IMG/VR virus record: IMGVR_UViG_3300048999_000056
Location: 1-64,000 of that record
DNA from: a virus
Direction: 5' to 3' (one strand)
DNA: 64,000 bases
The first letter of the stretch is position 1. Each line of letters opens with the position of its first letter. A program made the translations under genes and the position numbers. This document shows positions 2,176-64,000 of the stretch, piece after piece. The notes beneath the pieces were generated by a model. The model worked only from the letters and a program-made list of their open reading frames with translations, was not told the origin of the DNA and did no database searches.

Positions 2176-3500
2176 CACGTATGCGTATGCCGTTTGCGGA
2201 GGAGCAACAACCGCAACCGCAGCTATTCATGCAGATGCCGGTCGCGTTCATACCGCTGCTCGACCGGCGGATGCCCGACGGCACGCCGATCCGTTACAAA
2301 TGCTACTTCGGCGGACGCGGCGCCGGTCGCAGCTGGAACTTCGCCCGCGCTCTTGTCGGCGAAGCGTTCACCGAACAACACCTGATCCTCTGCACACGCG
2401 AGTTTCAGAACACGATTGCAGACTCGGTCAAGCGCGTGATCGAGACGCAGATCGCTGCCATGAAACTCGATCCATGGTTCCGCATCACGGAAACCAACAT
2501 AACGTGCCGGCTGACCGGCAGCGAGTTCATCTTCAAAGGTCTGCGTCGCGACATCCAGGGCATCAGATCGCTGGAGGGCGTGACACGCTGCTGGGTAGAG
2601 GAAGGCCAGTGGACCACTAATGACTCGTGGCTGATCCTCGACCCTACCATACGAGCGCCTGGCAGCCAGATTTGGGTATCCTATAACCCGGTCGATGAAA
2701 CCGATCCGACGCACCAGATGTTCGCGATCGATGAACACCGGCCGCACGACGCGTTGGTGCGCAAAGTCTCGTATCGTGACAATCCATGGTTTCCTGCCGA
2801 GCTGGAGCGGTTGCGCGTCCGTATGCTGGAGCAGGACCCGGATGCCTACGACTGGGTGTGGGAAGGCGAGTGCCGCAAGATATCAGCGGCGGCGATCTTC
2901 AAGGACAATTACATTGTCGAGGGTTTCGAGGAACCGGAGAAAGTTGACCGCTACTTCTTCGGTCTGGACTTCGGCTTTGCGCATGATGCGCTCGCAGCTG
3001 TGCGCTGCTACATCCACAACGATCAATTGTGGATCACGCACGAGTTCTACGCAATCGGCGTGGAGATCGACGACATAGCGCCCGCATTGAAGGGCGGACG
3101 CTCAGAGCGCAACGGCGCACAGTTTGAAGGTATCCCCGGTATCGAGCACTGGCCGGTGAAGGCTGACAGTGCGCGGCCCGAGACGATCAGTTATCTCGCG
3201 CGGCAAGGTCTCAACGTGACAGCCGCGGAGAAATGGCAAGGCTCTGTCGAGGACGGTATCTCGCACTTGAAGGGCTTTCGCAAAATCCACGTGCACACGC
3301 GCTGTGTCAACACGGCGCAGGAGTTCCGGCTCTACAGCTACAGGATCGACGCGAAAGCGAAGGACAAGCACAATCCGCAACCGGGCGATATCCTGCCGGT
3401 GCCAGAGGACAAGCACAACCACGCCATCGACGCAACACGCTACGCGCTCGACGGTTACATTCAACGTCGCGGTGGTCTGGGCGTGTGGGCCAAGCTGTGA
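2172..3500 (+). CDS. terL: Terminase large subunit (PBSX-type)
   Basis: Walker A-like GGRGAGRS, CTREFQNTIADSV, Walker B WVEEG, SYNP, nuclease motifs GLDFGF and NHAIDATRYA. Confidence 0.95.
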   Translation: MTRMRMPFAEEQQPQPQLFMQMPVAFIPLLDRRMPDGTPIRYKCYFGGRGAGRSWNFARALVGEAFTEQHLILCTREFQNTIADSVKRVIETQIAAMKLDPWFRITETNITCRLTGSEFIFKGLRRDIQGIRSLEGVTRCWVEEGQWTTNDSWLILDPTIRAPGSQIWVSYNPVDETDPTHQMFAIDEHRPHDALVRKVSYRDNPWFPAELERLRVRMLEQDPDAYDWVWEGECRKISAAAIFKDNYIVEGFEEPEKVDRYFFGLDFGFAHDALAAVRCYIHNDQLWITHEFYAIGVEIDDIAPALKGGRSERNGAQFEGIPGIEHWPVKADSARPETISYLARQGLNVTAAEKWQGSVEDGISHLKGFRKIHVHTRCVNTAQEFRLYSYRIDAKAKDKHNPQPGDILPVPEDKHNHAIDATRYALDGYIQRRGGLGVWAKL

Positions 3501-3511
3501 AAAACGGTTTT

Positions 3512-3530
3512 GGTATATAATAGATGGCAT
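3512..3530 (+). promoter_or_regulatory. Putative promoter/leader of GGY-NN array 1
   Basis: GGTATATAATAGATGGCAT (contains TATAAT) in a GC-rich genome; similar motifs precede arrays 2 and 3. Confidence 0.65.
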
Positions 3531-5449
3531 CGAATGGGTAGGCCAGGCATGTTGCGGTTTGGCTCGGCAGGCATCGCAACCACGCTCGGCATCGCAGGAT
3601 CGGCTTGGCGTGTGTTGGCTAGATAGGGCACGGTCCCGCAGGTAGGGCATGTGAGGGCTTGCGGCGGCAACGTTAGGCTTGGCGTTGCAGGCAGGTCGCG
3701 GTTCGACCAGACCCGGCTAGGCAGGGTTAGACGTGGCATCGCAGGATCGGCTCGGAACGTCACCGTTAGCTTTGGCTCGGGACGACTTGGCAGGCGAGTC
3801 TAGACAAGGCAAGTCAGGGCAAGGATCGACATCGCAGGCTCGGCTCGGTAGTTCTCGGCATGGTCCTGCCACGTAGGGTTGGGCATCGCAGGCAAGGCAT
3901 GGCGGGGTTCGACCACGCTCGGATCGGTTTGGCGTTGCAGGCTCGGTTCGGCAAGGCAGGCTCAGGCTCGACGTGTCATCGCAGGCGTGGCAATGATTGG
4001 CAAATCAGGGTTCGGCACGTCTAGGCCCGGCAGCGCAGGCATCGCAGGGACCGCATCGGTTTGTCAGGTCGTGGCACGGTGGGACGTGGCAGGCTAGACA
4101 TAGCAGGACGTGATAGGGCCGGGTTCGGTATCGCAGGTGAGGCTAGGCACGTCGTCGTGTGGACTGGACCGGCAACGTCCGGCAGGCACGGTTCGGCTTA
4201 GCAGGGCTTGTCAAAGGCAGGGTACGGGTTGGCTGGCGAGGCATGGCATCGTGCGGCCACGATAGTCCAGGCGGGTTGCGGCGGGCATGGCATGGCAAGA
4301 TACGGCGCCGCTCGACGCGGTATGTCGGCGCAGGCAGGTCTAGGCGCGGCTCGACGTGGCTTGGTCCGTTCCGGCCGGCTCCGCTCGGCACGGCATGGTA
4401 CGGAGCGTTCGGCAAGGCAGGGCGGGCTCGGCACGGTATGAGGCGGCTCGACGCCGGTGGGCAACGCAGGCACGGATCGTGAGGCAGCTCTAGGGATGGC
4501 TCGGCTCGACACCGCAGGCTTGGGTAGGCGAGTTGACGAAACGCTCGGCATGACGGGGCTCGGTAGGGCTGGCTTGGATTGGCGCGGATCGGCATGGCAC
4601 GTTGAGGTCCGGCAACGCAGGCTTGGTTGGGTTAGGCCCGACGTATCGCGGTTCGGCTCGACACGACAGGGCAGGCGTGGATTGGTAGGCGTGGATCGGC
4701 CTCGACTGGCATCGCATGGTATGGCAGGCGCGGCAAGAGTCGGCAGCGCTGGTCTAGTTCCGGCTGGTCATGGCGGGCACGGCAGGTTGAGACATGGTTC
4801 GGCCCGCCCACGTATCGCACGCTTTGGCATGGCGTCGCAGGCACGGTAAGCTGAGACATGGTCCGGCCCGGTTTGGCAGCGAAGGGTAGGGCATCGCAGG
4901 CTTGTCACGGCTGGGCAGGGGTCGTTGAGGCAATGTTAGGCATGGCGTCGCAGGCTCGGCTCGGTTAGGCATGTCCGCGTTTCGCGTGGCTCGGTTGCGC
5001 GGGCAGGGTTTGGTCGGTTTGTCCAGTCACGTCCCGGCTCGTTGGCGCTGGTCGTGGCCGGCATGGCAAGGTGAGCATAGGCTGGACACGGCAAGGGCGG
5101 CAACGCGGGCACGGCATGGCAATTCTCGGCTGGGCGACGTTTGGCAACGCGGGCGTGGATTGTCTCGGCAAGGCTGGTCGGGGATTGGTCAGGCAGGCCC
5201 CGCTTGGTCGGCTCGGCATGGCTAGTCAGCTCTCGTCAGGACGTGGCAGCCGTGGGAAGGCGAGGGCAGGCGTCCGGCGGTTCGGCAAGGCACCGCTGGC
5301 TGCGCTCGGTTTGGTCGGCTCGGGAAGGCTAGGTGGGGCTTCAGCAGGGCAGGCATGGCCCGACACGGCTCGACATGGTTAGGCGGGGCATGGTCCCGCT
5401 GGCATGCCATGGCACGGCGACGCCAGACGGGGCTAGACCAGGCAGGCAT
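3526..5449 (+). repeat. GGY-NN pentamer array 1 (putative guide-RNA array, roughly 35-40 units)
   Basis: 5-nt periodicity; unit ends such as GGCAT-CGCA start at 3588, 3632, 3681, 3735, 3784, 3828, 3882, 3931, 3975 and 4029 (spacings 44/49/54); no credible ORF. Confidence 0.9.
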
Positions 5450-5467
5450 ATATGATGGAGGTTGCGC

Positions 5468-5863
5468 ATGCTGCAACCTTTTTCAATGGATGGACAATAC
5501 CTTCAACTCGTGGCGCATCTGCGCGGTTGCGAACACGCGCTCTCCGATGATTTCAGGGGAGCGTGGGCGCCAGCCGCGCAACCGCGCCTCATGTGGGCAA
5601 TCGAGATCAACGTCGAAATGCCGCTCGATCCGTGCGACCTCGAAAAGCGGTTCGCGGCAATGGCGTTGAAGTACAAGATCGACATGCGGCAAGGCGACGC
5701 TCTGACGCCGCCGCTGCAACCACCTTATCCAGCATTGCGCCGGCACATACGCAAGGCGCGTAGCTTCTATGGTTTCATTGTCACCTATGTAGCGATGGTG
5801 CCGCATCCGGCAGCGTCGTGCACGAAACCGCCCTTCATTCCATTGGAGCCGATAGCGGCATGA
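5468..5863 (+). CDS. Hypothetical protein
   Basis: GGAGG upstream; overlaps the next ATG. Confidence 0.5.
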   Translation: MLQPFSMDGQYLQLVAHLRGCEHALSDDFRGAWAPAAQPRLMWAIEINVEMPLDPCDLEKRFAAMALKYKIDMRQGDALTPPLQPPYPALRRHIRKARSFYGFIVTYVAMVPHPAASCTKPPFIPLEPIAA

Positions 5864-6171
5864 TCAACCGTCGTAGGTTTGTGCAGGGATTGCTGGCATT
5901 GCCGGCGATCGTGCGAACGCCCGGCCTGCTCATGCCGGTGCGGCCGATCAGACCGCAGCTGGGTCCTGTGTCTGGCAAGTTCTACTTTGAAGTTGGCTGG
6001 GGCGAGCCTGCAACAGCGACGAGCGCTTGGTTGAACAAGACACCTGACGAAGTCTTGGCCGACGTGAATCAGATTTTCTCGATTGGCTGGGACCAATGTC
6101 AACCTGATTGGCAAGTCGTGTTCGACGACGGCAATCTGCAAGTGAAGCCGACAGAGTTTGGAAGTTTCTGA
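5860..6171 (+). CDS. Hypothetical protein with an RR/Tat-like N-terminus
   Basis: MINRRRFVQGLLALPAIVR..LMPVR; ATGA overlap with the upstream gene. Confidence 0.55.
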   Translation: MINRRRFVQGLLALPAIVRTPGLLMPVRPIRPQLGPVSGKFYFEVGWGEPATATSAWLNKTPDEVLADVNQIFSIGWDQCQPDWQVVFDDGNLQVKPTEFGSF

Positions 6172-6172
6172 C

Positions 6173-6349
6173 ATGGGCCGCATCCCCGCTGAGCTGCAGC
6201 CATACGTCAACCGCCTGACCGGCTGGCAACGCAATCAATGGGCGAAAGCCGGTTATCCTGTCGAGGTCCGCGCGGTGCAACGCTATGCGCGTATGCGCAA
6301 GCCTGAGTTTCGCATGCAGGCGCGCTCCAGGCGACGGCGCCGTGCGTGA
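6173..6349 (+). CDS. Small basic hypothetical protein
   Basis: LTGWQRNQWAKAGYP; operon-like spacing. Confidence 0.45.
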   Translation: MGRIPAELQPYVNRLTGWQRNQWAKAGYPVEVRAVQRYARMRKPEFRMQARSRRRRRA

Positions 6350-6491
6350 ACCCTGAGCACGAAGAAGCCCATAGACGCGCCGCCGACAAGCGCCGTGACG
6401 ATCGGCGACGAGATCGTCTGGCCTGGTTCGGTGTGTGGATCGGTGTCTTCACGGCGCTGATCGCCATGGCAATAGCTGTAGGATTTCACCG

Positions 6492-8612
6492 TTGAGCGAT
6501 CGTGTCACCAAACCACGGGTGCGCGTGCAGGCTGGTAGCCCCAACAAGGCTTTCGTTGGCGATAGCTTCGCCAACTTCGCCGGCAATCTCGGCTACGGCA
6601 CGCAGAACCCGTCATCAGGCGCAACGTATGGTTTCCATCCGTTGTCGCGTGATCGTACGCTGCTCGAATGGATGTATCGGGGCAGCTGGCTTGTCCGCAA
6701 GGTCGTTGACTGCCCTGCCGACGATATGACGCGTGAGGGCATCAACATCGAAAGCGACATGCCGCCCGATGACATCGACGAGTTTACCCAGTTCTGGAAC
6801 AACCTGCAACTTTGGCAGCGGATCAACGCTACGCTGAAGTGGGCACGCCTGTATGGCGGCTGCCTCGCAGTTATGATGATCGCGGATCAGGACCCTGAGA
6901 CGCCGTTGCGGATCGACACGATCGGCAAGAATCAGTTCAAAGGGTTGATGGTGCTCGATCGGTGGATGGTCTGGCCGCACAACGATCTCGTGCGCGACTA
7001 CGGCGCCGACTACGGCAAGCCCAAGCTGTATGAGGTTGTCGCCGATGCGCGGTCGCAGCCGCGTTTGAAGGTGCACTATTCACGCGTCATACGCTTCGAC
7101 GGTGTTGAGCTGCCGTATTGGCAGAAGATGTCGGAGAACGAGTGGGGCCTCTCGGTCATTGAGCCGTTGTGGGATCGGATGATTGCATTCGACTCTGCGA
7201 CACAGGGCGCTGCCCAGTTGATCTATAAGGCGCATCTGCGCATTCTCAAGCTGCCGCAATATCGCGAACTGATCGCGTCGGGCGGTGCGATGTTCCAAGC
7301 CGTCATGCGGCAAATCCAGATGATCCGCATGATGCAGACCAACGAGGGTCTGACGGTCCTCGACGGCGAGGATGATTTCGTCTCGCAGCAATACAACTTC
7401 GGCGGCCTCGCCGAAATGATGATCCAGTTCGGTCAACAAGTGTCCGGCGCTGCCGACGTGCCGATGACACGTATGTTCGGACAGTCTCCCGCCGGCATGA
7501 ACGCAACAGGCGAGTCCGACCTGCGGAACTACTACGATGGTATTCGCTCGCAACAGGAGTTCCGCCTGCGTCGCGTAATCAAGCAGTTGCTTGATATCAC
7601 CTATCGCTCGATGACAGGACGGCCTTTGCCGCGTGGCTTCAACTTTTCGTTCAAGCCGCTATGGCAGTTGACCGACGAGATCAAGGCGCAGATCGCCACA
7701 GCGCACGCGACGGCGACCGAGGGCTTGCTGCAGGCTGGCGTCTTCACGCCGGCTATCGCACTGAAGGAAATCCGCCAGTCGTCACGGTTGACCGGTTTTG
7801 GTAGCAACATCACAGACGAGGATATCGAAGCTGCCGAACAGGCGCCGCCCATGCCCATGGAAGCCGGTATGCCAGGGGCGCCAGGACAGCCTGGACTGGC
7901 GGGACCGGAAGGCGACATGCCTGTGCCCGGCGTGCCCGGACCTGAGCAGCAGCCTGGATTGCCAGGGTTGCCGGCCGGTCGCGAGGCGCCGATGGAACTC
8001 GCGCCCAGGGAGGCGCTGCGGCGGCTCTCAGGCGCTGCCACAGGGCGGCAAGCAGCGACTGAAGAGGATGATGCCGCGAGATCGCCGGAGCCGCTGGCGG
8101 GCGCTCATATCAAGCTGCATGAGGGTGTCACGGCACGCGCCAATCTGCCCGGCACGCAAGTCAACTTCGACCGCCGCTCGATTATCGACATGGGCGGTCT
8201 GCAATGCGTGATCGAAACCGCCAAGGGTGAACAGCGGCTCGGCTACGGCTGGGCCGATGTCATGCCTTGCAACTATGGCTACATCACCGGCACGTCCTCC
8301 GCCGAGGGTGAGCGCGAACAGATGGATTGCTTCGTCGGCGACGATCTGACGAGTGATCGCGTTTGGATAATCGACCAGATCAACCCCGGCACAGCGCACT
8401 TCGACGAGCATAAGGTGATGCTCGGCTTCAGCTCGCGTGACGACGCATTGCAGACCTACCATGCAGCGTTCGGCGATGGCTCCGGTCCAGCCCGCGTCGG
8501 CACGGTGCGTGAAATGAGTATCGGCACGTTGAAGCGGTGGCTGGAGGATTGGAAATACGCCAATGCGCCGCCGCGCCGGTCCGCCAACGGAGACGCAAGA
8601 TATGATCGTTGA
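6492..8612 (+). CDS. Portal protein (DUF1073 family) with a C-terminal inorganic-pyrophosphatase-like domain; start codon uncertain
   Basis: YRGSWLVRKVVDCPADDMTR, WARLYGG, HYSRV, FGQSPAGMNATGESDLRNYYD; Pro/Gly linker; then IETAKG..YGYI.GT..DCFVG..FDEHKVMLGF. Confidence 0.9.
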   Translation: MSDRVTKPRVRVQAGSPNKAFVGDSFANFAGNLGYGTQNPSSGATYGFHPLSRDRTLLEWMYRGSWLVRKVVDCPADDMTREGINIESDMPPDDIDEFTQFWNNLQLWQRINATLKWARLYGGCLAVMMIADQDPETPLRIDTIGKNQFKGLMVLDRWMVWPHNDLVRDYGADYGKPKLYEVVADARSQPRLKVHYSRVIRFDGVELPYWQKMSENEWGLSVIEPLWDRMIAFDSATQGAAQLIYKAHLRILKLPQYRELIASGGAMFQAVMRQIQMIRMMQTNEGLTVLDGEDDFVSQQYNFGGLAEMMIQFGQQVSGAADVPMTRMFGQSPAGMNATGESDLRNYYDGIRSQQEFRLRRVIKQLLDITYRSMTGRPLPRGFNFSFKPLWQLTDEIKAQIATAHATATEGLLQAGVFTPAIALKEIRQSSRLTGFGSNITDEDIEAAEQAPPMPMEAGMPGAPGQPGLAGPEGDMPVPGVPGPEQQPGLPGLPAGREAPMELAPREALRRLSGAATGRQAATEEDDAARSPEPLAGAHIKLHEGVTARANLPGTQVNFDRRSIIDMGGLQCVIETAKGEQRLGYGWADVMPCNYGYITGTSSAEGEREQMDCFVGDDLTSDRVWIIDQINPGTAHFDEHKVMLGFSSRDDALQTYHAAFGDGSGPARVGTVREMSIGTLKRWLEDWKYANAPPRRSANGDARYDR

Positions 8613-26623: not shown

Positions 26624-27376
26624 ATGCCGCTGACGGAAAAAGGCTCCGAGATCATGTCCAACATGAAGGAGCAGTACGGCTCGGAGAAAGGCGAACAGGT
26701 CTTCTATGCGAGCAAGAACAAGGGCAAGATCAGCGGCGTGGACTCACAGGACCTGCCGCTGCAGAACTTGATGGAGAAACTGATGGGCAAATTCGCCAAG
26801 GATGAAGACAACGGCGGTGGCGCACGTGCAGCCCCGCCGATGCGTCCGGAGGGCAAGGAGGTTGATGCCATCGGCGTGCAGCTGTCTGGTGACAAGCGCG
26901 CTTTCTTCAAGGGCGCCTTCAAGGATGCACGCCGATTCCTGTCGATCGGCGATTCCTTCAAGTATGCGCTCGATCAGATCAAGGAAGCCGAGGAAGCGCC
27001 GCCCATGCGGCCAACCGGCGATCGTGCCGCGCAGTTGCGGTGGGCAATGGATCAGGTGGGAATGAACCTGCCACGCCCCGAGGGCACCCAGCGCGCAGTC
27101 AAGGCACCAAAGGGCGACTCTGGCACTGCCGAGGGCGCGCGCAAAGCTGCCCAGACGCGTGGTAGTGGTGGTGGCGCGGCGGCTCGGAACATTGGACGTG
27201 GCATTGCCTCGCAGTCACTGCGGGGTGCCGAGGCGCGGCGCCATGGGATCAAGCCGGGCCACCAAATCCAGCCGCAAGGCGGCGGCCGGACGCAGACTGT
27301 CCACTCGGTCCATGGCACCACGATCAACACGCACGAGGGTAACAGCTATCACGCGACGAAGGTGCGCCGCGTATGA
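26624..27376 (+). CDS. Hypothetical (possibly internal head) protein
   Basis: GGAGG RBS; MPLTEKG..IM..M..QYG.EKGEQVFYAS.NKG.I.GV N-terminus. Confidence 0.65.
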   Translation: MPLTEKGSEIMSNMKEQYGSEKGEQVFYASKNKGKISGVDSQDLPLQNLMEKLMGKFAKDEDNGGGARAAPPMRPEGKEVDAIGVQLSGDKRAFFKGAFKDARRFLSIGDSFKYALDQIKEAEEAPPMRPTGDRAAQLRWAMDQVGMNLPRPEGTQRAVKAPKGDSGTAEGARKAAQTRGSGGGAAARNIGRGIASQSLRGAEARRHGIKPGHQIQPQGGGRTQTVHSVHGTTINTHEGNSYHATKVRRV

Positions 27377-27828
27377 CAGCGCTATCAGCTACTCAGTTCC
27401 GCGCGCTGTTTCCGGCGTTCCGTGATCCGGCCGCGTTTGTCGATGGCGAGGTTGAGGCGTGGCTCGACATTGCCGACAAGGCGCTCGACCCGATGATCTG
27501 GGCGAACTATCGCGATCTCGCCATGGCGTTGTTCACGGCCCACAATATCGTGTTGAGCCGACGCGACGAAAAGGCAGCCGACAGCGGCGGTGTGCCCGGC
27601 TCGCCGGTTAGCGGCGTTGTGGCGTCGAAGAGTGTTGGCGCCGTCTCCATCAGCTACGACACGCAAGCCGGACTGGAGCAGAATGCCGGCGCATGGAACC
27701 TGACCAACTACGGCACGCGCTTCTATCGACTGATGCGCCTTGCCGGTATGGGCGGAACGCAACTTGGTGGTCCTGATGTTCAACTTGGTCCAACGTTCGG
27801 ACCGGCATGGCCCGGCGTGCTCGAATGA
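27373..27828 (+). CDS. Head-tail adaptor (DUF4054 family)
   Basis: FR..FPAF.D, LFTAH, SKSVG.VS.SYD, WN.T.YG..F. Confidence 0.85.
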   Translation: MTALSATQFRALFPAFRDPAAFVDGEVEAWLDIADKALDPMIWANYRDLAMALFTAHNIVLSRRDEKAADSGGVPGSPVSGVVASKSVGAVSISYDTQAGLEQNAGAWNLTNYGTRFYRLMRLAGMGGTQLGGPDVQLGPTFGPAWPGVLE

Positions 27829-28323
27829 GCCGCGCCGAACCACGTCACGACTTGCGGTGCGTTGCCGTGTCACGCCTGCCCAGCCTTGCCAGGAGCGGCC
27901 CCGACCGGCGCTGCCGACCCTGGACACGCCTGCGTTGCCGTTCCACGTCTAGCCCTGCGTGGCCCAACCAAGCCTGCGATACCGTGCATCGTCTCGCCTG
28001 ATCTGGACTCGCCTAGCCGATACATGCCTGCGATGCCAGCCCATGCGTAGCGTTGACCTGTCTAATCAGGCGCTACCGAGCCAAGCCTGCTGAGACAAGC
28101 CTTGCCGCGAAAAGCCACCACATCCCTTGCCCCGCCAGCCCTGCCCCATCGAGCCACGACCAGCGTCAACGAGCCTAGCCTGCCAAGCCGAACCCGGCGA
28201 TGACCTGAGTCGCCCTGCCATGCCGAGCCTGCGATGCCCTGCCTCGTCGTGCCCTGCGATGTTAAACCCGAGCCTGCCAGGACAGCCCTCGTCTAGCCTT
28301 GCCGAGCCGAATCATACCATGCC
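27829..28323 (-). repeat. GGY-NN pentamer array 2 (about 10 units)
   Basis: On +, CCTGC linkers at 27929, 27973, 28027 and 28086 (spacings 44/54/59); fills the intergenic gap. Confidence 0.88.
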
Positions 28324-28337
28324 ACTTCATATATACC
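28319..28337 (-). promoter_or_regulatory. Putative promoter/leader of array 2
   Basis: Minus strand reads GGTATATATGAAGTGGCAT; 15/19 identical to the array 1 leader. Confidence 0.65.
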
Positions 28338-28350
28338 GATCGAGGTTTTC

Positions 28351-28893
28351 GTGGCGCAACCACCACACGTTGTAACGGACCATGTTGACGAAGTGCTGAA
28401 GTCAATTCGTCAGCTCACACGCGCGAAGGTTTATGTTGGCATTCCTGCGGCGAACAATCCGCGCAAGGATGGCGTGACGCTCAACGCATTGCTCGGCTAC
28501 GTGCATGAGCATGGTTCGCCTGAGCGCAACATTCCTGCCCGCCCGTTCCTCGTGCCCGGTGTGAAATCCGTTGAGGACAAGACGACAGCCGGTCTGCGTC
28601 GCGCGGCGGAAAACGCACTTGAAGGGCAGTTGGAGCAGATGTTGAAGCAACTTGGTGCTGTAGGCTTCATGGCGACCAATGCCGTCAAGCGGATGATCAC
28701 TGCCGGATTGTCGCCACCACTCGCCGAACGCACTGTGCGGGCTCGGTTGCGAAAGACGCAAGCCGGGCGGCGGCGCCTGCGCAAGCTGGAGCAAGGCGGT
28801 GTTGATCTCTACCAATGGGGCGCCACCAACTTGAAGCCGCTGATCGATACTGCGCAGCTGCGGAACTCCATCACTTACGTCATCCGGAGTTGA
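28351..28893 (+). CDS. Neck/tail-completion protein
   Basis: VYVGIP, HEHGSP..NIPARPFL.PG, PLA..T, KPLIDT.QLRNSITYV. Confidence 0.8.
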   Translation: MAQPPHVVTDHVDEVLKSIRQLTRAKVYVGIPAANNPRKDGVTLNALLGYVHEHGSPERNIPARPFLVPGVKSVEDKTTAGLRRAAENALEGQLEQMLKQLGAVGFMATNAVKRMITAGLSPPLAERTVRARLRKTQAGRRRLRKLEQGGVDLYQWGATNLKPLIDTAQLRNSITYVIRS

Positions 28894-28897
28894 ACTT

Positions 28898-29302
28898 GTG
28901 GCAGAGATCGACGTTACCGAAATCCTCGCCGATCCTGATCTGGCTGACTCGTTTGTTGTCACGCGCACGCGGCAGATCACCGATACGCACGGGCGCACGG
29001 TCGCGCTGCAGCCGAGCACGACAACGGTAGTCGGTGTGGTCCAGCCTATGAGCGGGCGCACGTTGAACATGATGCCTGACATGGTCAACGTATCGGGCGC
29101 TATCGAGCTATGGACAACCTATCGGCTTGAGGGACCGTCGGAGACGACGCAGTCCGATGTCGTCACGTGGCAAGGCCGCAATTACATGGTGCAGAACGTG
29201 CAGCCGTTCACCAACTACGGACAAGGCTACGTGCATGCGGTTTGCCAGCTGATAGACCTTGTGGCGAAGGATGTCGGCGCGTTGACGGATACCGGACCAT
29301 GA
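28898..29302 (+). CDS. Head-closure protein
   Basis: IDVTEIL.DPD, GVVQP, D.V.WQG..Y.V, YG.GY; gene order. Confidence 0.7.
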   Translation: MAEIDVTEILADPDLADSFVVTRTRQITDTHGRTVALQPSTTTVVGVVQPMSGRTLNMMPDMVNVSGAIELWTTYRLEGPSETTQSDVVTWQGRNYMVQNVQPFTNYGQGYVHAVCQLIDLVAKDVGALTDTGP

Positions 29303-29889
29303 GCGGCAATTCCTCGGCGACGGGTGGCTATCTTCGTCAACTCAATACGCCGCTGTCCGACGATGCGTTGCTCGACGCCATACACGATGCGATTGCCGGC
29401 ATCACCGGGATAGCGCCCGAGCTGGTGCGCCCGCGCTGGCAGCATCTGCCGCCCAACCAGCCACCGAATACGCCGCCTGCTGCGACCAACTGGTGCGCGT
29501 TCGGCATCACGGACCGCACACCGATCAACTACCCCGTGATCCGGCACTTTGCAGGGGGGCCAGACAGGGTTACGCGCTGGTCCGCTGTCACGGTGCTGGC
29601 GAGCCTCTACGGCCCTGCCTGCCACGCTCTGGCAGAGCAATTGAGGGATGGTTTCTACGTGGATCAGAACCGCGAACAGCTCGGGCTGGTCGGCGTCAAG
29701 CTAACAGAGGTCGGCGAGCTGACGGCGGTTCCCGATCAGGTCAATCTGCAATGGCTCAATCACGTTGACATCCCGATCATCCTCGCGCAGTCGGTAGACC
29801 GCGACTACGACGTTCTGGACATCGCTTCAAGCCAAGGCACGATCACAACCGAGAATGGCGTGACCGTGGATTGGAATGTCAACGAATAG
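29299..29889 (+). CDS. Neck/tail terminator protein
   Basis: N.SATGGYL, GITG....LVRPRWQ, WCAFGI, YGP; precedes the sheath gene. Confidence 0.75.
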   Translation: MSGNSSATGGYLRQLNTPLSDDALLDAIHDAIAGITGIAPELVRPRWQHLPPNQPPNTPPAATNWCAFGITDRTPINYPVIRHFAGGPDRVTRWSAVTVLASLYGPACHALAEQLRDGFYVDQNREQLGLVGVKLTEVGELTAVPDQVNLQWLNHVDIPIILAQSVDRDYDVLDIASSQGTITTENGVTVDWNVNE

Positions 29890-30112
29890 CCTGCGATGCC
29901 ATGCCGAGCCGCATCGGTCCTAGTCACGTCTTGCCCTGCCATGCCGAGCCTGCGCTGCCGCGCCAGGACTGGCGTCAACGAGCGATGCCGAGCGTTGCCG
30001 GCCACACCGCGACTTAGCCGTGCCAAGCCCAGACTTGCCTTGCCAAGCCCGCCGCACCTTGACGTGTGCTGCCCGTCCTAGACCGGCCAAGCGCGCCGAG
30101 CCGGGTCTTGCC
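29889..30112 (-). repeat. GGY-NN pentamer array 3 (about 4-5 units)
   Basis: On +, CCTGCGATGCC at 29890 and CCTGCGCTGCC at 29949 (spacing 59); pentamer periodicity. Confidence 0.85.
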
Positions 30113-30126
30113 ACTTGTTATATACG
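30108..30126 (-). promoter_or_regulatory. Putative promoter/leader of array 3
   Basis: Minus strand reads CGTATATAACAAGTGGCAA; same consensus as the other two leaders. Confidence 0.65.
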
Positions 30127-30157: not shown

Positions 30158-31654
30158 ATGCCTATCGGTCTATCTGTCTCTGATGTTGTGCAGGTTTCAA
30201 TCAACCTGCAGCCGATCGCAGCGCCTACGCGAAACTTCGGTGCGCTCTGCATCATCGGCGATTCTTCTGTCATCGATATCGCGTCGCGCATCCGTCAGTA
30301 TACGACGCTCGACGGTGTTGCGGCTGACTTCGGTACAACGGCGCCGGAGTATCTGGCCGCCGATCTGTTTTTCTCGCAGAGCCCGCAACCGTCAATCCTC
30401 TACATCGGGCGCTGGGCGCGCACTGCGACAGCGGGGCAGCTCAACGGCGCCGTGCTCAATTCGGCGCAGCAAGCGGCGTTGCTGACGACGCTGCAGGGGA
30501 TCACAACCGGCGGCATGACGATCTCGGTGGACGGCACGCCGCATGTGCTGACCAACCTGAATTTTTCCGGCATCCTCAATCTTAACGGCGCAGCCACGAT
30601 CATCAATACTGCACTGCCGTCAGCAACCACGGTTTGGGATGGCACGCTCGGGCGGTTTGAGGTCACGTCGCATACCAGTGGCGGAACTTCCAGTGTCAGC
30701 TACGCCACCGATCCTGGGACCGGCGCACCGTTGGCAACCGATCTTGCGTTGACACAGACATCAGGCGCATCGGCGCCGATTGCCGGCGTGCCTTCGGAAA
30801 CGCCCGTTGCGGCGGTCCAGGCGATCAGCCCGCTCAACGCTGATATCTACGGGATCATGTTCGCTGCCGCCACGCCGCCGACTGATGTCCAGCGTCAAGC
30901 GGTTGCAGCCTATATCGAAGGTGCCTCGCCGACGCATATCTACGGGATCACGGTGCAGGACCCGCTGGCAATCGATCCGACCTCTACCACCGATCTCGGC
31001 TACCTGCTCAAAGCGGCCAATTACAGCCGGACATTCTGGCAATACAGCAGTTCATCGCCTTATGCGGTTGCGTCCATGTTCGGCCGCGCCTTCACGACAG
31101 ACTTCAGCGCGAACAACTCGGTGATCACACTCAAGTTCAAGCAGGAGCCGGGTGTGACGGCTGAGTCGTTGACCGAGACGCAGGCTGCCGCGATCGATGC
31201 CAAGAACGGCAATGTGTTCGTCAACTACATGAATGACCGGGCGATCATTCAGCAAGCCAAGATGGCGTCTGGCATTTTCTTCGATGAGCGTCAGGGCACC
31301 GACTGGCTGCAGAACCAAGTGCAGACTGACATCTTCAATCTGCTCTTCACGTCGCCGACCAAGATACCGCAGACCGATCCCGGCATGCACCAGCTTGCCA
31401 CGACAGCCGAACAGTCGATGGACCGTGCTGTCAACAATGGTCTGGTGGCACCGGGCATCTGGACCTCTTCGCTGGAGTTCGGCTTGCTCAAGCAGAACCA
31501 AGCGCTGGCGAAGGGTTACTACGTGTTCATGCCGCCAGTGGCGACACAGAGCCAGTCCGATCGTGAAGCACGCAAGGCGACAACAATGCAAATCGCGGCG
31601 AAACTCGCTGGTGCTGTGCATGATGCGAACGTCGTCATCAACGTCAACCGATGA
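30158..31654 (+). CDS. Contractile tail sheath protein (DUF3383)
   Basis: V..DFG...PEY.AA..FFSQSPQP, ITLKFKQEPGV, DWLQN..Q, KIPQTD, KLAGAVH. Confidence 0.92.
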   Translation: MPIGLSVSDVVQVSINLQPIAAPTRNFGALCIIGDSSVIDIASRIRQYTTLDGVAADFGTTAPEYLAADLFFSQSPQPSILYIGRWARTATAGQLNGAVLNSAQQAALLTTLQGITTGGMTISVDGTPHVLTNLNFSGILNLNGAATIINTALPSATTVWDGTLGRFEVTSHTSGGTSSVSYATDPGTGAPLATDLALTQTSGASAPIAGVPSETPVAAVQAISPLNADIYGIMFAAATPPTDVQRQAVAAYIEGASPTHIYGITVQDPLAIDPTSTTDLGYLLKAANYSRTFWQYSSSSPYAVASMFGRAFTTDFSANNSVITLKFKQEPGVTAESLTETQAAAIDAKNGNVFVNYMNDRAIIQQAKMASGIFFDERQGTDWLQNQVQTDIFNLLFTSPTKIPQTDPGMHQLATTAEQSMDRAVNNGLVAPGIWTSSLEFGLLKQNQALAKGYYVFMPPVATQSQSDREARKATTMQIAAKLAGAVHDANVVINVNR

Positions 31655-36509: not shown

Positions 36510-37138
36510 GCGGAAGCCTTGCTGGCAGCTCGGCGACGATCGCCGCACTCATTGGTGCGGACGTTCTTGAGGAAGTGTTCCTGCAGCCTCACAGGACCAT
36601 CGGGACCATCATTCCCGAGTGCGCCGTGGAGGAACATCATTCGGACCGATTACAGGTCACACAGCATCCGATCGAGATCGGCGCCAATATCTCCGACCAT
36701 GCCTACATGCTGCCTTTCGAGGTCACGTTGCGCTACGGTTGGTCGAACGCGTTGATCGGTGGACAGATACAGAACCTTGGCGATCGGTTCGCGGCGATCG
36801 GCAGCGAGAGTTTTCAACAAGTGATCTCGGGCGGCCAGACCGCCGCGATCTACGAGCATCTGCAGCAGCTGCAAGCGTCGCGCATACCCTTCAGGATCGT
36901 GACGGGCAAGCGCACCTATGCCGACATGCTGATTACGGAAATGGGTGTTACGACCGACGCGCGCACGGAGAACGTGCTGATTGTCGAGCTACACTGTCAA
37001 CAGATTATCAGGGTTTCGACCAGCTCTACGCCCGCAGCGGCGGCGCAGGCGATGCCGGAACAGACAGGTGACGCTATCAACACCGGGAACCAGCAGCTTA
37101 CGCCGGTTCCCGGTGGTGCCGTGACGGGTGTCGCTTAG
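36506..37138 (+). CDS. Baseplate tube-initiator (Dit-like) protein
   Basis: EE.H.D.L.VT.HPIE.GA.ISDHAY..P, L..LQ.SR.PF.IVTGKR.Y..MLI. Confidence 0.8.
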   Translation: MSGSLAGSSATIAALIGADVLEEVFLQPHRTIGTIIPECAVEEHHSDRLQVTQHPIEIGANISDHAYMLPFEVTLRYGWSNALIGGQIQNLGDRFAAIGSESFQQVISGGQTAAIYEHLQQLQASRIPFRIVTGKRTYADMLITEMGVTTDARTENVLIVELHCQQIIRVSTSSTPAAAAQAMPEQTGDAINTGNQQLTPVPGGAVTGVA

Positions 37139-37785
37139 TGGACGAAGTTGCAGGCTAGGTGCGCTGTGCCGTAGTAGTCGGAACCCATGCCGCGATACGA
37201 GCTGAGACAGCTATCCCAGAGCATCTGCTGGCTCTGTGCCGTGGCGCCCGCCGCGCCGCCAGGATGGCGTTGACAGGCGCCCTGATCTCCATAGTAGCAC
37301 GTGATGGCGTCGCGGTTCTGTTGGGCTTGTGCGGCGATTGCGTCCTTCTGCGCCTGAGGCAGACAGCCGGACGGATTGTAGCTGTTGCAGACGTGGTTCT
37401 GATTCGCCTTGTGATACTCGGTTGCCAGCTCGCGATTGTTGATCGTCGCCTTGTCGCTTTCCCATTGCTGGCAGGTCGCCGAGCCTTGGGCGTAGGGGCA
37501 TGACTCCGGAGCAGCCCAGCCGGAGCCGGCATACAGCTTGCGGACTTCAGCGTAGGACATCGTGCCGGTGATCTTCGGCGGGCACGATCCGGCTGGTGGA
37601 CCGCCCGGTTGTTGATGGTAAGGCACTGGCCGCCCGGTCTGTCCGTCAACAACGTTCGTGCAGCCTTTGTCGGCGAAACCGCCCGTGTGGTGCCACTCGT
37701 TCCATGCGGAATACGGGTGACCGAAGCTGCCGTCAGCATTGCAGCCGGCGAGGGTGATGCAGGCGGTGAGGATCAAGGCGCGCAT
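37135..37785 (-). CDS. Cys-rich lipoprotein, antisense within the tail operon
   Basis: MRALILTACITLAGC lipobox; AAGGA RBS; many Cys; fills the gap between two + strand genes. Confidence 0.7.
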   Translation of the reverse strand: MRALILTACITLAGCNADGSFGHPYSAWNEWHHTGGFADKGCTNVVDGQTGRPVPYHQQPGGPPAGSCPPKITGTMSYAEVRKLYAGSGWAAPESCPYAQGSATCQQWESDKATINNRELATEYHKANQNHVCNSYNPSGCLPQAQKDAIAAQAQQNRDAITCYYGDQGACQRHPGGAAGATAQSQQMLWDSCLSSYRGMGSDYYGTAHLACNFVH

Positions 37786-37814: not shown

Positions 37815-38132
37815 ATGGCAACGACGATCTCGGAAATCCCGCTACGTGCTTCATCGCAGACGTTCACGATCTCGCTTGCATCTGTAATATACAAAATGCG
37901 GGTGCAGTGGCGCGACAAGGCACAGGAATGGATCGTTGATCTGAGCGATCAGGACGACAATTTGTTGATCGCTGGCGTGCCGCTGCTGCCCGGCGCCGAC
38001 ATTCTGGGGCAGTATCCAGAGCTGGGCGTCGGCGGCGAGCTATGGGTGGCGTCGGACGGTGCGCCGGACGAACCGCCAACCTTTGCCGGGCTCGGCTCGA
38101 CCCATCACCTGTACTTCGTGGCGAGAAGCTGA
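37815..38132 (+). CDS. Small baseplate protein (DUF6983-like)
   Basis: EIPL....Q.F.I.L, W..D, G.PL..G.D.L.QY. Confidence 0.75.
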   Translation: MATTISEIPLRASSQTFTISLASVIYKMRVQWRDKAQEWIVDLSDQDDNLLIAGVPLLPGADILGQYPELGVGGELWVASDGAPDEPPTFAGLGSTHHLYFVARS

Positions 38133-44600: not shown

Positions 44601-46526
44601 GGCACGTGGCAGCCGGCAGTCTGGTATACTGATGCAAACGGCAGTCCTGATGGCTACGGGATCGATGACGGCTGGTTTGTCAATCCATTCAACCCGGCGA
44701 CGCCGATCAACGACATATATACGATCGTCAGTGGCTCTTTGAACCTCGCGATCGAAGCCAAGCCGGCAAGCGTCGCTCCCTCGGCTGTCGGCAACAAGCC
44801 TTACATGACTGGGCAGCTGCAGACACAGCCGACATTTCGGCAAGCAGGCGGCTACTTTGAAGCGCGGCTTGCCTGTCCGAAGTTGGATGGAACCATGTTC
44901 GCGTGGTGGTTCTATTCCGACAACGGCAACCAGATGAACCTGGAGATTCCGACCGTCCAGGGCGGCGGTCAGTTCGCCAAATACAGTCTGTGGAACCAGG
45001 GCTCGCAGGCGATCGTCAACGAGTTCTACAGCTACAACATGGCGAGCCCGATCGACTGCACGCAATTCCACACTTACGGCATCGATTGGAACCCGCCAAC
45101 CGGACTGATGACGTTCTACATCGATGGCGCACAGGTTATGCAGGCGCCGATCCCGGCCGGCTTCACCGATCCGATGTACATGCTCTTGTCGAGCTACACA
45201 GGTTCGGCCGGCTGGTATGGTTCGATCACCAATCCTGCCGGGTTGCCGATCAAGATGCAGGTTGACTACGTGCGCGCATTTCCGATCGGGCATGGTCCTG
45301 GTAGCGGTGTTGCCGCGCAACCTGTCACGACGTTCCTGAGTTCGCTTGGCGTCAACGTCCATATCGATCAGGGTTTCAGCGCGAACTCATATATCACACC
45401 GCTGCAGTTCACCGGGATCAAGAACATCCGCACCGGCTACAGCAACATTGGCGGTGCCGTGACGGCGCACAACTCAGCCGGCGTAATGGTCAACGTGTTC
45501 GGTTCGTCTGATCTCACGAGTCACCTTGCAGCAGCGCGGACTCTTGCCACCAACGGCGCGCTGCTATCAATCGAAGGACCGAACGAGCCCAACAATTTCC
45601 CCTTCAGCTACCTGGGCAATCAGGGCGGCGGCTCGGGCACATGGGTCCCGGTAGCGCAGTATCAACGCGATCTTTATGCAGGCGTCAAAGCCGATAGCCA
45701 GCTGCAGAACTTCCCCGTGTTCCACGTTTCTGAGGGTGCCGGCGAGACGGACAACGTTGGCATGCAGTTCCTGACGATACCGAACGGCGCCGGTATCGCC
45801 ATGCCTGACGGCACGAAGTATGCCGACTATGCCAATCCGCACAACTACGTCTCAGGCAATCTGGGCGGTCAGTATGTCAACAACACGGCATGGAACGCTG
45901 CCGATCCGACATTGAACGGCTCCTGGGACGGGCTCTATGTGGAGTATGGGCGGACGTGGCGCGGCGGCTTTGCCGGCTACAGCAATGCGGACTTGCAGAC
46001 GTTGCCACGCGTCACGTCAGAAACCGGCTGGGACTCGACCTCGCTTGGCGAGACGATACAGGGCAAGGTTCTGCTCAACACCTACCTCGCGCAGTTCAAG
46101 CGCGGGTGGCGCTACACGTTCATCTATGAAATGTTCGACCAGGAAGCGTCATCGGGCAACCAGGGGCTGTATCGCAGTGACAAGGTGACGGCGAAGCTGG
46201 CCGCTACCTACATTCACAACATGACAACGATATTGGCTGGCGGGTCGAACATCGCCACGACGCCGCTTGCCTATTCGATCGCCAACCAGCCGGCGACTGT
46301 GCACGATCTGTTGCTGCAGAAAACCGGCAACGTCTATGATCTGATCGTCTGGGGCGAACAGGTATCCGGTTCAAACAACGTGGTTGTCAACCTTGCGGTG
46401 GCACGTTCCTCCATCAAAGTCTTCGATCCGACTGTCGGCACGGCTGCTGTGCAAACGTTGACAAATGCCAGCTCCGTGACGCTTTCGGTGAGCGATCATC
46501 CCTTCATCATAGAGATCACGCTCTGA
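41667..46526 (+). CDS. Multidomain appendage protein: clan GH-A hydrolase, Ig/Fn3, SPRY-like, GH16-like, second clan GH-A hydrolase
   Basis: WEIGNE and LSEWN; Fn3 repeats; LSNSNLT..GKLAFEV; GYFEAR..FHTYGIDW; EGPNEPNN and TSETG. Confidence 0.75.
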   Translation: MPNLTINLGSLTGKTVPAALYGFSTGALADNGFANAAATATKNALTTIKPTLVRVNANQQIPEKYGTGNTGYTNNWWNNRAAFMDPNHTFVMSAGPSSDTGLPYSASQEATYASNFATAMRNAGHEITTWEIGNESLNILPDVASYLNYYLPIARALHTVNANYKVGGPATTWWGAYDPAQFANGVAAGDCDFYEFHAYNFQGVTDHASIYNGAKNFGDADSIRTALRNTKLANVPIFLSEWNLDGDFNTNPGIQITYVGAIADALLSTRMWQGDPNIMGAAYWDAISDPKFGAIETNGQINPPGYYLGYAGQHMPGAEVTVSGVSGNLQVLATKNGSNVAIQLVNYDTASASANNITLTGGQPSGAITRWEIGKSNQSTPNVSTQASLSSVNVPSEQIVILTFSTAAAQRSLTVNAITGAQVGSTFTVSGTLTNFTSAPTLLYSDDGGGTQALPAGANVTATSYSFTHPAPTIAGNHTIVVTDGTNSASATYSVVDITWQSRPLTGSLSDTVTGLAPSTSYDFRVSAQNSLGSGPFSTVVTRSTGTVAPTLPGAPVSVSSSAVSSSSVTVTWGAPTTGSAPFTYRVQSSPAGLGTWTNRGTGVSGTSLPVTGLAAATSYDFRVFATNSVGEGPASSTYNVSTTTAAAAVTWDPANIGGGATLSNSNLTVTANGSTTPGTAFQGVRSTVSQSAGKLAFEVTTNALTQDMEIALVNGNHAQTTDAGEDQLNGIAFYPSGGGGSQAPMSVYQNSVQVLVPSGSPISDSPGSIVTFCVDLTARLFWVTSNAMRSVYGASAWNDSASANPATGVGGIPINITGALFICFFSSEGGAVVTLNAGSSTFSTFVPSSFAAWGGTGAITAPGAVTSLSGSPSSTSVQLTWSAPTIGTTPFTYHMQMSPTGTNTWSDQGTSSSVSGTVAGLTPGTGYDFRVYAANAAGNGGFSNTITVSTTSGVSGTTFDEEFGTLSLLNTRNTAAGGTWQPAVWYTDANGSPDGYGIDDGWFVNPFNPATPINDIYTIVSGSLNLAIEAKPASVAPSAVGNKPYMTGQLQTQPTFRQAGGYFEARLACPKLDGTMFAWWFYSDNGNQMNLEIPTVQGGGQFAKYSLWNQGSQAIVNEFYSYNMASPIDCTQFHTYGIDWNPPTGLMTFYIDGAQVMQAPIPAGFTDPMYMLLSSYTGSAGWYGSITNPAGLPIKMQVDYVRAFPIGHGPGSGVAAQPVTTFLSSLGVNVHIDQGFSANSYITPLQFTGIKNIRTGYSNIGGAVTAHNSAGVMVNVFGSSDLTSHLAAARTLATNGALLSIEGPNEPNNFPFSYLGNQGGGSGTWVPVAQYQRDLYAGVKADSQLQNFPVFHVSEGAGETDNVGMQFLTIPNGAGIAMPDGTKYADYANPHNYVSGNLGGQYVNNTAWNAADPTLNGSWDGLYVEYGRTWRGGFAGYSNADLQTLPRVTSETGWDSTSLGETIQGKVLLNTYLAQFKRGWRYTFIYEMFDQEASSGNQGLYRSDKVTAKLAATYIHNMTTILAGGSNIATTPLAYSIANQPATVHDLLLQKTGNVYDLIVWGEQVSGSNNVVVNLAVARSSIKVFDPTVGTAAVQTLTNASSVTLSVSDHPFIIEITL

Positions 46527-60799: not shown

Positions 60800-61255
60800 A
60801 TGGCAATTCTCAACGCAACAGCCGGCATATCAGGTGTCGGCAGGCTGACGGCAATCGCTGCGGCAAAGGAAACAGCGACGGCGGTCCTGTCGGGCAATGC
60901 CAGCGTATTTGTCAACGCTGTCAATGCGCTGCATCTGGCGAGCCCGCCAAACTATCCGATTCCGCCGCAGGCGGATGACGCTGCGCCTGTCTTTCTTGTC
61001 GATCCGGCAACCGGTGCCGCAGTCGGCGCAACAGGACCGTACGCAAACGCACTGCCGGTGACGCCGGCCGATGTCGGCTCACTGCCGGCAACCACGCGTG
61101 CGTTGTGGATCGGCGGTGCCGGTAACGTGACGGTTGACACTCTTGGCGGACAGACAGTCACGCTGACCGCAGTGGCAGCAGGAACATTGCTGCCACTGCA
61201 AGTCTCGCGTGTCCGTGCGGCGACAACGGCGACGTTGGTCGTCGCGTTGTGGTGA
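60800..61255 (+). CDS. Head-spike base protein-like (RcGTA Rcc01079 family)
   Basis: VTP.D...L....RALWIGGAGNV.V....G..VT......G..LP..V.RV....TA..VVALW. Confidence 0.7.
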   Translation: MAILNATAGISGVGRLTAIAAAKETATAVLSGNASVFVNAVNALHLASPPNYPIPPQADDAAPVFLVDPATGAAVGATGPYANALPVTPADVGSLPATTRALWIGGAGNVTVDTLGGQTVTLTAVAAGTLLPLQVSRVRAATTATLVVALW

Positions 61256-61256
61256 T

Positions 61257-62261
61257 GCCTGCGCTGACGGGTCGCACCCTGCCGCGCCTAACCGTGTCGG
61301 GCGATGCCTGCCAAGCCCTGACAATCCACGTCTTGCGTTGCCGTGCCGTGCCGGGCCTGCCGGGTCAAGCCGGGACCTTCCGAGCGTTGCGATGCCGCGT
61401 CTGCCCCGCCATGACATGCCTTGCCGTTGCGAGCGTAGCCTTGCCTGCGCTGTCTTGCCGTGACGGACCTAGCCGCGCTCTGCCCTGTCGAGCCTGCCAT
61501 GCCATGCCCTGACGATCTATGCCATCCCGAGCCGAGCCTAGCCAGCCACGTCAAGCCGTGCCTTGACACGTCTTTCCAAGCCTAGCCGAGCCGAGTCTGC
61601 GTTGACCTGCCAATCGATACCTCGCCGTGCCAAGCCGCGTCTGCCCTGCCTCGGCCTGCCGAACGATACCATGCCCTGCAGACCCATGCCTGCGATGCCG
61701 GAACGTGCCCTGCGCTCTCGTGCCACGTCACCACGTACCCTGCCTGCGCCGCCTCAACGCGTCCTACCGAGCCAAGCCGAGACAAGCCTGCGATGCGGCG
61801 CCTAGCCTCGCCTCGACGGATGTCGCCTCGCCTAGCCTGCGTTGCCACAACCAGCCCCCCGAGATCAGGCGAACCCAGCGTGTCCAAGCCTGCCACGCGC
61901 CGCCCGGACTGCCCTTGCCTATCGGTGTCGCCCCGAGCCGGCCGCGCCCTGCCTCGCCCAGTCTCGTCCTGCCAGGACGTGCCTTGCCTGCCCCGTCGTG
62001 ACGTGCCCAGCGCGGCGTAGCCGAGCCTGCCATGCCATGACCGGTCTAGTCCCGCCTAACCATAGCGGGCCGCGCCTGCCCCGCCATCCGGGCGTCGCCT
62101 TGCCGAGCCTTGTCGAACCATGCCTGCGACGCCTTGCCACGGCGTTACGCGTCTAGCCGCACCTTGCCGAGCCTGCGACGCGATGCCTTGCCAAGCCACG
62201 TCGCAACCCGCCAAGCCTGCGTTGCCATCCCTCGAATTGCCCAGCCAACGCTAACCCTGCC
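61257..62261 (-). repeat. GGY-NN pentamer array 4 (about 20 units), downstream of the RAMP-like operon
   Basis: Minus-strand unit 62173-62125 reads GGCTC GGCAA GGTGC GGCTA GACGC GTAAC GCCGT GGCAA GGCGT CGCA; linkers at 62123, 62172 and 62216 (spacings 49, 44). Confidence 0.9.
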
Positions 62262-62276
62262 CTGTACACAAGGCGA

Positions 62277-62839: not shown

Positions 62840-63080
62840 TGTTCGGCCTCCTGGTTGAACGCGCGGCCCAGCCGATAGCGTTCGCCAGATCGCCTTTTTC
62901 CATTGCCAGCTCATACTTGTTGAGTGCGAGCATGTGTTGCGTGAACTTGCGCTCGCGCCGTGCCCATGTGCCAATACGCCGCTTCCTCCGAGGCGGCGTT
63001 TCCTGCAATGCTTTCTCCTTCAGCGCCTCTTGTGCGAGGCGCTGCCCTTCACGGGTTATGTTTTTCAACCGGCTAAGCAT
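62832..63080 (-). CDS. Small basic hypothetical protein
   Basis: 8-nt overlaps with both flanking genes. Confidence 0.55.
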   Translation of the reverse strand: MLSRLKNITREGQRLAQEALKEKALQETPPRRKRRIGTWARRERKFTQHMLALNKYELAMEKGDLANAIGWAARSTRRPNNA

Positions 63081-63948: not shown

Positions 63949-64000
63949 AGGTCCGCGCTTGCCGGGCTCGCGTGCCCAAACGGCCGGCTCAACGTCTTCG

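Follow-up and report, generated by a model that had tools for sequence, protein, structure and literature searches.

The virus record studied here is a 112,818-bp IMG/VR genome that CheckV rates as complete, and by the window we mean the stretch from position 1 to position 64,000 of that record. Dispersed over the 113-kb genome are five arrays, about 4.3 kb in total, four of them within the window (Table 1); a G-autocorrelation detector with lags of 5 and 10 delimits them. A dynamic-programming parse resolves all five into units of 7-11 GGYNN pentamers joined by 4-nt linkers, of which CGCA is the commonest, followed by GGCA, TGCA and others, and finds no constant repeat in the units beyond that linker. 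The arrays hold at least four tandem GGY/NN (YNNGG) pentamers on one strand, the pattern by which vrRNA arrays are recognized. Rfam at gathering thresholds returned no family in the window, and ARAGORN returned no tRNA or tmRNA there. At its C terminus, the portal protein encoded beyond array 1 (Phage_portal_3; 6492-8612, +) has a domain resembling inorganic pyrophosphatase (Pfam InPase, residues 564-685, E = 3e-27). Beyond the window, a minus-strand replication module at 64-104 kb encodes a DnaB-like helicase, SbcCD, a UvsX-like recombinase fragment, SSB, DNA polymerase, the RNR large subunit, a sliding-clamp-like processivity factor, primase, and a methyltransferase followed by an HNH endonuclease.

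Table 1. Arrays, leaders, hairpins and neighbouring genes; positions are counted along the virus record.
Feature	Position	Strand	Detail
Array 1 leader	3512..3530	+	GTATATA 3513-3519, hexamer TATATA 3514-3519, spacer 3520-3524
Array 1 start	T(-1) 3525, predicted +1 G 3526	+	G opens first pentamer GGCAT
Putative vrRNA array 1	3526..5455	+	about 40 units; between terL and portal module
Intrinsic-terminator-like hairpin	5457..5483	+	stem GGTTGC/GCAACC 5460-5478, five T 5479-5483; closes array 1
Array 2 leader	28319..28337	-	GTATATA 28336-28330, T(-1) 28324, predicted +1 G 28323
Putative vrRNA array 2	27835..28323	-	about 9 units; antisense to flanking neck genes
Array 2 flanks	27373-27828; 28351-28893		DUF4054 gene; second flanking gene
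Array 3 leader	30108..30126	-	GTATATA 30125-30119, T(-1) 30113, predicted +1 G 30112
Putative vrRNA array 3	29886..30112	-	about 4 units; antisense
Array 3 flanks	29299-29889; 30158-31654		neck-terminator gene; DUF3383 sheath-like gene
Putative vrRNA array 4	61257..62263	-	about 22 units; downstream of vipr operon; no promoter motif of its own
12-bp hairpin, no T run	61169..61199	-	directly past array 4, before end of convergent + strand gene
9-bp hairpin, UUCG loop	62274..62295	-	MFE -23 kcal/mol, z -3.1; gap between last operon gene and array 4
Small operon gene, 173 aa	62839-62318	-	candidate vap accessory gene
Small operon gene, 82 aa	63080-62832	-	candidate vap accessory gene
vipr candidate (Cas7/Csm3-like RAMP), product P0001	63073..64000, ORF on to about 64083	-	first of three operon genes
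Putative vrRNA array 5	about 87897-87275	-	outside window; between RNR and DNA polymerase
GAAAA (approximate)	3491-3495, 28314-28310, 106426-106430, 66874-66870		9-13 nt upstream of the G of GTATATA
Heptamer GTATATT, then acaga-TG	37886..37892	-	107 nt upstream of - strand gene 37135-37785
Intragenic GTATATA	44716..44722	-	antisense within gene of 1619 aa; no Y/R pair

VIPR, a phage-borne system related to CRISPR, was first described in 2026 (bioRxiv 10.64898/2026.04.26.720920), and a further paper treats its structure (10.64898/2026.04.26.720927). Its RAMP protein, Vipr, is of minimal type and forms polymers along vrRNAs in which GGY alternates with NN; the NN dinucleotides recognize double-stranded DNA, skipping one base, and the GGY/NN strand is the RNA strand. 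Several array architectures occur, including a 'staggered' one with abutting units (10.64898/2026.04.26.720920, Fig. S18). The element described here carries both a RAMP gene of the Vipr type and the arrays. An AlphaFold model of P0001 (pLDDT 74) matches Csm3/Cas7 chains with E of about 1e-4. A sequence search of P0001 against PDB chains, in a copy of the PDB older than the VIPR structures, gave no match. The protein has 1491 homologues; as a single query against viral contigs it found nothing, and the alignment used as query gave homologue loci. Pentamer arrays occur in 76 of the 93 sequences scanned, about 80 of which are Vipr-homologue loci, and usually lie straight behind vipr or a partner gene. 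Together, the RAMP fold and the arrays at homologue loci identify a VIPR system, and from sequence and structure model we take the five arrays to be vrRNA arrays of the 'staggered' kind. Neither small operon protein matches Pfam, and the 173-aa protein matches phrog_15946, a family of unknown function. Apart from the lone RAMP, no cas gene was seen among the phage proteins scanned. Against 1.5 Mb of sequence (the phage's own genome and the comparison loci), with skips of 0-3 allowed, 64-77 guides found targets no better than shuffled guides did.

Our focus here is on what lies in front of the arrays. The initial annotation had placed a shared GTATATA-N5-TGGCA leader ahead of three of them, and all three 19-mers can be read directly in the sequence, with the motif at 3513(+), 28336(-) and 30125(-) in the 64-kb window. 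The stretch behind each copy keeps a strict 5-nt rhythm on the G-rich strand. The observation that the first GGC stands at the same distance in all three also holds, in a precise form: TGGCA consists of a single T and the opening in-frame pentamer of the array (GGCAT, GGCAT and GGCAA in arrays 1, 2 and 3, respectively), the parse being in frame from the predicted +1 G in each. The motif specifies 12-13 bases, so few that public collections should contain it thousands of times by chance. Searched as GTATATANNNNNTGGCA with at most one mismatch, it gives exactly three matches in the window vs a mean of 0.05 in dinucleotide shuffles, and none of 100 dinucleotide-preserving shuffles gave three. A scan of the whole genome, a check that the initial annotation had itself named, brings the number to four exact copies and one copy with a single mismatch. 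What follows the fourth exact copy, at 106448(+), is a protein gene and not an array, and the near copy, GTATATA-TAGGA-TGGCG at 64143(-) just beyond the window edge, precedes the vipr operon and, after it, array 4. The leader is thus truly shared by three arrays but is not specific to arrays.

The heptamer alone is more widely spread. GTATAT[AT] occurs 16 times in the 112,818-bp genome, and 13 of these copies fall outside gene calls that cover all but 26% of the genome (binomial P = 7e-6; the calls, made with a GC3 filter, are crude). All 13 are oriented toward a downstream gene or array on their own strand. They head genes of the minus-strand replication module at 64-104 kb, genes of the plus-strand block that begins at 104 kb, the vipr operon, four of the five arrays and a minus-strand gene at 37785; ordinary gene fronts account for about 10. 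From its sequence, we read the copy in front of the last-named gene as the same promoter type at an ordinary gene. The copy antisense within the gene of 1619 aa is probably a chance occurrence. GTATATC also stands at 87256 (-), between the T5 run that closes array 5 and the DNA polymerase start at 87215, and the polymerase gene may have its own promoter there, downstream of the array.

Initiation by sigma-70 holoenzymes favors a position about 7 nt past the -10 element, with a pyrimidine at -1 and a purine at +1. A pyrimidine at the sixth base and a purine at the seventh base after TATATA occur at 14 of the 16 heptamers, including all 13 intergenic ones. The position of this pair places the predicted +1 on the first G of TGGCA, that is, at 3526, 28323 and 30112. 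TATATA matches TATAAT at five of six positions in every leader, although the consensus of the host itself may differ; 3516-3521 additionally reads TATAAT. Because TATATA is palindromic, the orientation of the element depends on the flanking G and the bases downstream. We tried the opposite reading, in which the box would serve as a plus-strand promoter for the genes flanking arrays 2 and 3, and rejected it: those genes start merely 16 and 33 nt away, no -35 accompanies the box on that strand, and relatives that lack the insert express the same flanking genes. The leader of array 2 is 14 nt from the GTG start of the plus-strand gene at 28351-28893.

We weigh the motif here as a promoter. The explanation we consider likely, on the strength of sequence patterns, is that it is an ordinary phage promoter from which transcription starts on the first five-base unit of the array. 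GTATATA(W) would be the -10 element of a promoter type that serves many phage genes, read probably by the host sigma-70 holoenzyme without a canonical -35. The A/G-rich spacer of five bases and the T that follows would be the discriminator and position -1, and the RNA would begin GGCA... on the first GGYNN pentamer. A -10-like element with its start beside the first pentamer is what the initial annotation had proposed, and the recurrence of the heptamer at co-oriented intergenic sites, the Y-1/R+1 pair and the copy kept in a relative (below) all favor it. Rather than being reserved for arrays, the motif would represent a promoter type that the phage employs generally. Initiation by RNA polymerase at the motif, the identity of the sigma factor and the time of firing are what we infer from these patterns.

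The array 5 front differs in detail. It reads GGTATATA-GGAAT-CA-GGCGC on the minus strand, and its predicted start is one base ahead of the first pentamer. At both non-array sites, 106448(+) and 64143(-), a stem-loop begins at or a few bases from the predicted +1, as a 5'-terminal stabilising hairpin would; at 106448(+) two stem-loops follow the predicted start. The ORF behind that copy, which has a good ribosome-binding site, encodes 257 aa rich in Gly, Ala and Ser, with no match in Pfam or PHROG. Its segment (106448-107297, +) is of low complexity (Gly/Asn/Ser/Ala-rich) and has a terminal pair of AAFQxFLTSQxIAFT repeats.

It is also conceivable that what is conserved is a handle of the VIPR RNA or DNA, with GGCA(W) marking the point where Vipr loading or processing begins and the AT-rich box being a mere spacer or a landing site for protein. 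The first pentamer is indeed GGCA(T/A/G) in all four array leaders when that of the relative L001 is counted in, GGCAT or GGCAA is frequent as the pentamer that precedes an internal linker, and several arrays of other phages open with exactly GGCATGGCAGGC. Strings like GGCATGGCAGGC, however, are as common within arrays as at array starts, for which reason we rejected that string as an array-start mark. Moreover, array 5 begins CAGGC, the exact motif heads the protein gene at 106448(+), a near copy heads the vipr mRNA, and the heptamer stands at the ordinary gene fronts counted above. We regard a handle as improbable.

The promoter reading has to accommodate the lack of a second element. A consensus scanner that seeks the canonical sigma-70 pair of -35 and -10, together with terminators, had no match at any leader, and no -35 close to TTGACA lies 16-18 bp upstream of the box. 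In an alignment of 15 heptamer sites, high information content is confined to the heptamer, with weak information upstream of about -17. The earlier remark that no consistent -35 could be identified thus stands. Sigma-54 promoters (TGGCAC-N5-TTGCW) were considered because of the TGGCA element and rejected: TGGCA(T/A) is followed by CGAATGGGT, GGTATGATT and GACCCGGCT, with no TTGC at the required place. Neither a Sigma70_r2 domain nor an RNA polymerase of the T7 type was found in the phage, which fits use of the host polymerase, our default inference. A single weak r4_2 match (14.8 bits, under the cut-off) was disregarded as a phage sigma factor.

Upstream of some heptamers there are further shared bases. 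GAAAA occupies about -27 to -23, the same position, in the four promoters at 3513, 28336, 106448 and 66896, and could serve as an upstream promoter element or bind a factor; a T-rich run is often found ahead of the heptamer. After correction for multiple testing, the k-mer support for both the run and GAAAA is weak. These bases invite the idea of a dedicated regulon, in which a phage or host factor would recognize promoters with GAAAA at this position and a TGGC start and so co-regulate the vipr operon, the arrays and the gene at 106530. The TGGC start is found at five heptamer sites vs about 0.005 expected per site, and the copies at 3513 and 106448 are similar over about 40 nt. The two features do not travel together, however: 66896 has GAAAA without TGGC, whereas 30125 and 64143 have TGGC without GAAAA. 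No transcription factor, sigma factor or other regulator was detected among about 45 phage proteins scanned, and the enrichment is weakened by the correction just mentioned. A regulon of this kind is, in our estimate, a doubtful alternative to an ordinary promoter.

Comparison with relatives shows how the leaders and arrays behave as units. The closest terminase that a TerL search of metagenome contigs returned belongs to L001, a viral contig of 19.6 kb (70% TerL identity), and no GenBank phage matched the first 20 kb by megablast. In L001 an array lies immediately after terL and is headed by GTATATT-TGAAC-TGGCA, at the same site and in the same register, with diverged flanking bases; it is the only relative from which an orthologous array is known. 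The terL-portal interval of L001 holds two arrays (5655-7638) that flank a small gene at about 6319-6600; the GTATAT leader heads the first array only, and the second begins after TAATGT-TATCATT. Among other Vipr-bearing phages, a few arrays also have TATAAT or TATAT boxes shortly before the first pentamer (L050 and L052, about 4679 and 447; L086, about 9141; L058, about 10584). Most arrays of Vipr-bearing phages directly follow the stop codon of vipr or of a partner gene.

The other arrays with leaders are absent from relatives. In seven relatives whose sheath-like protein is 68-70% identical, the neck-terminator and sheath genes abut, array 3 is missing, and the pentamer signal occurs nowhere. 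The insert in our phage extends from directly past the ribosome-binding site of the sheath gene to the upstream stop codon. At the position of array 2 the sheath relatives have short junctions or unrelated small genes, and the array is missing between the orthologous genes of L094, L099 and L100. Relatives by DNA polymerase (54-55% identical) have neither array 5 nor the heptamer. The absence of arrays 2, 3 and 5 from relatives indicates that they are inserted cassettes, with leader and array gained or lost as a unit. In relatives, the neck-gene junctions that here contain arrays 2 and 3 carry unrelated small inserted genes (L096, 1777-2358; L093, 445-1350; L097, 711-1037; L098, 2874-3158 and 3700-4026), and these junctions look like insertion hot spots.

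Such mobility raises the question of whether the likeness among leaders is only a leftover of cassette duplication, or of the insertion junction, with no function today. The lineage-specific insertion of arrays 2, 3 and 5 and the extended similarity of leader 1 to the copy at 106448 are what one would expect of a remnant. Yet the leaders are identical only in the heptamer and TGGCA and differ in the N5 spacer and in their flanks. Further, the motif is kept in L001 at 70% protein identity, and the heptamer with its Y/R pair recurs at the fronts of unrelated genes. We find a functionless remnant very hard to credit.

If the motif is instead a working promoter, each dispersed array would be a self-contained cassette consisting of a promoter and units of 7-11 pentamers with their linkers. 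The array 1 cassette would additionally end in a terminator: the hairpin that closes it has a fold of MFE -16.6 kcal/mol (z -1.9), which a simple scanner overlooked. Folding revealed no convincing terminator for arrays 2, 3 and 5, and transcription of arrays 2 and 3 would continue into structural genes in the antisense direction. The hairpin past array 4 scores z -5.4 for a stretch of 113 nt. Vipr, the Cas7-like product of the candidate gene at 63073 to about 64083(-), would then load the array transcript. That the leaders fix array orientation and that the arrays are transcribed, as the initial annotation had argued, agrees with the way the motif travels with the cassettes, with the terminator of array 1 and with the identity of the GGY strand as the RNA strand in published VIPR. 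For the first guide, the 5' end would be set by initiation and not by processing.

A more ambitious combination of these elements is tempting, and we offer it as speculation that we hold to be rather unlikely as a whole. It would make the arrays autonomous, promoter-bearing guide cassettes that can be gained, lost and placed anywhere, even antisense within late operons. Initiation would fix the 5' end, and so the phase, of the first guide. A promoter subclass with GAAAA at -27 to -23 and a TGGC start would link the arrays, the vipr operon and one gene besides in a common programme of expression.

The system shares with published VIPR its phage-borne nature, one Cas7-like RAMP gene with small partner genes, and non-coding GGYNN arrays on the G-rich strand whose units abut with short junctions. 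It differs in having five scattered arrays, four with a promoter-like leader and two antisense inside the structural operon. In the VIPR preprints consulted, the word 'leader' is never used of arrays, and 'promoter' is used solely for expression plasmids and reporters, so that a promoter at the first pentamer appears to be undescribed there. The solo or orphan vrRNAs of satellites and vipr-null phages also lie away from the vipr operon (bioRxiv 10.64898/2026.10.15.759431), and vrRNA genes so remote must bring their own expression signals. Those, however, are single guides with a conserved 3' tail, whereas here long arrays of many units occur in a phage that bears vipr.

The promoters themselves resemble -35-less promoters of the sigma-70 type (extended -10 promoters, and the late promoters of T4, TATAAATA) in that an AT-rich box of 7-8 bp lies about 7 nt before a Y/R pair, no -35 can be recognised and a phage genome contains many copies. 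They differ from extended -10 promoters in that TG accompanies only some heptamer copies, and from T4 late promoters in that neither a gp55-like nor any other phage sigma factor was detected here. A CRISPR leader likewise is an AT-rich promoter sequence straight upstream of a guide-RNA array and sets the direction of transcription, but it is 100-500 nt long vs about 20 nt here, and the motif here also heads ordinary genes. We rejected a CRISPR array with its leader: direct repeats with unique spacers are lacking, as are cas1 and cas2, and without these the motif has no role in spacer integration.

The proposed arrangement is a new detail of a known system, with a promoter of ordinary type, and it leaves the overall picture of VIPR unchanged. 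If the predicted starts are right, the remote arrays are independent transcription units on the ordinary promoter of the phage, and the first guide begins at +1 and requires no 5' processing. The arrays would then act like morons, inserted at gene junctions. For this clade, the motif would offer a simple rule for annotating the orientation and boundaries of arrays, and it would provide a testable handle on guide expression.
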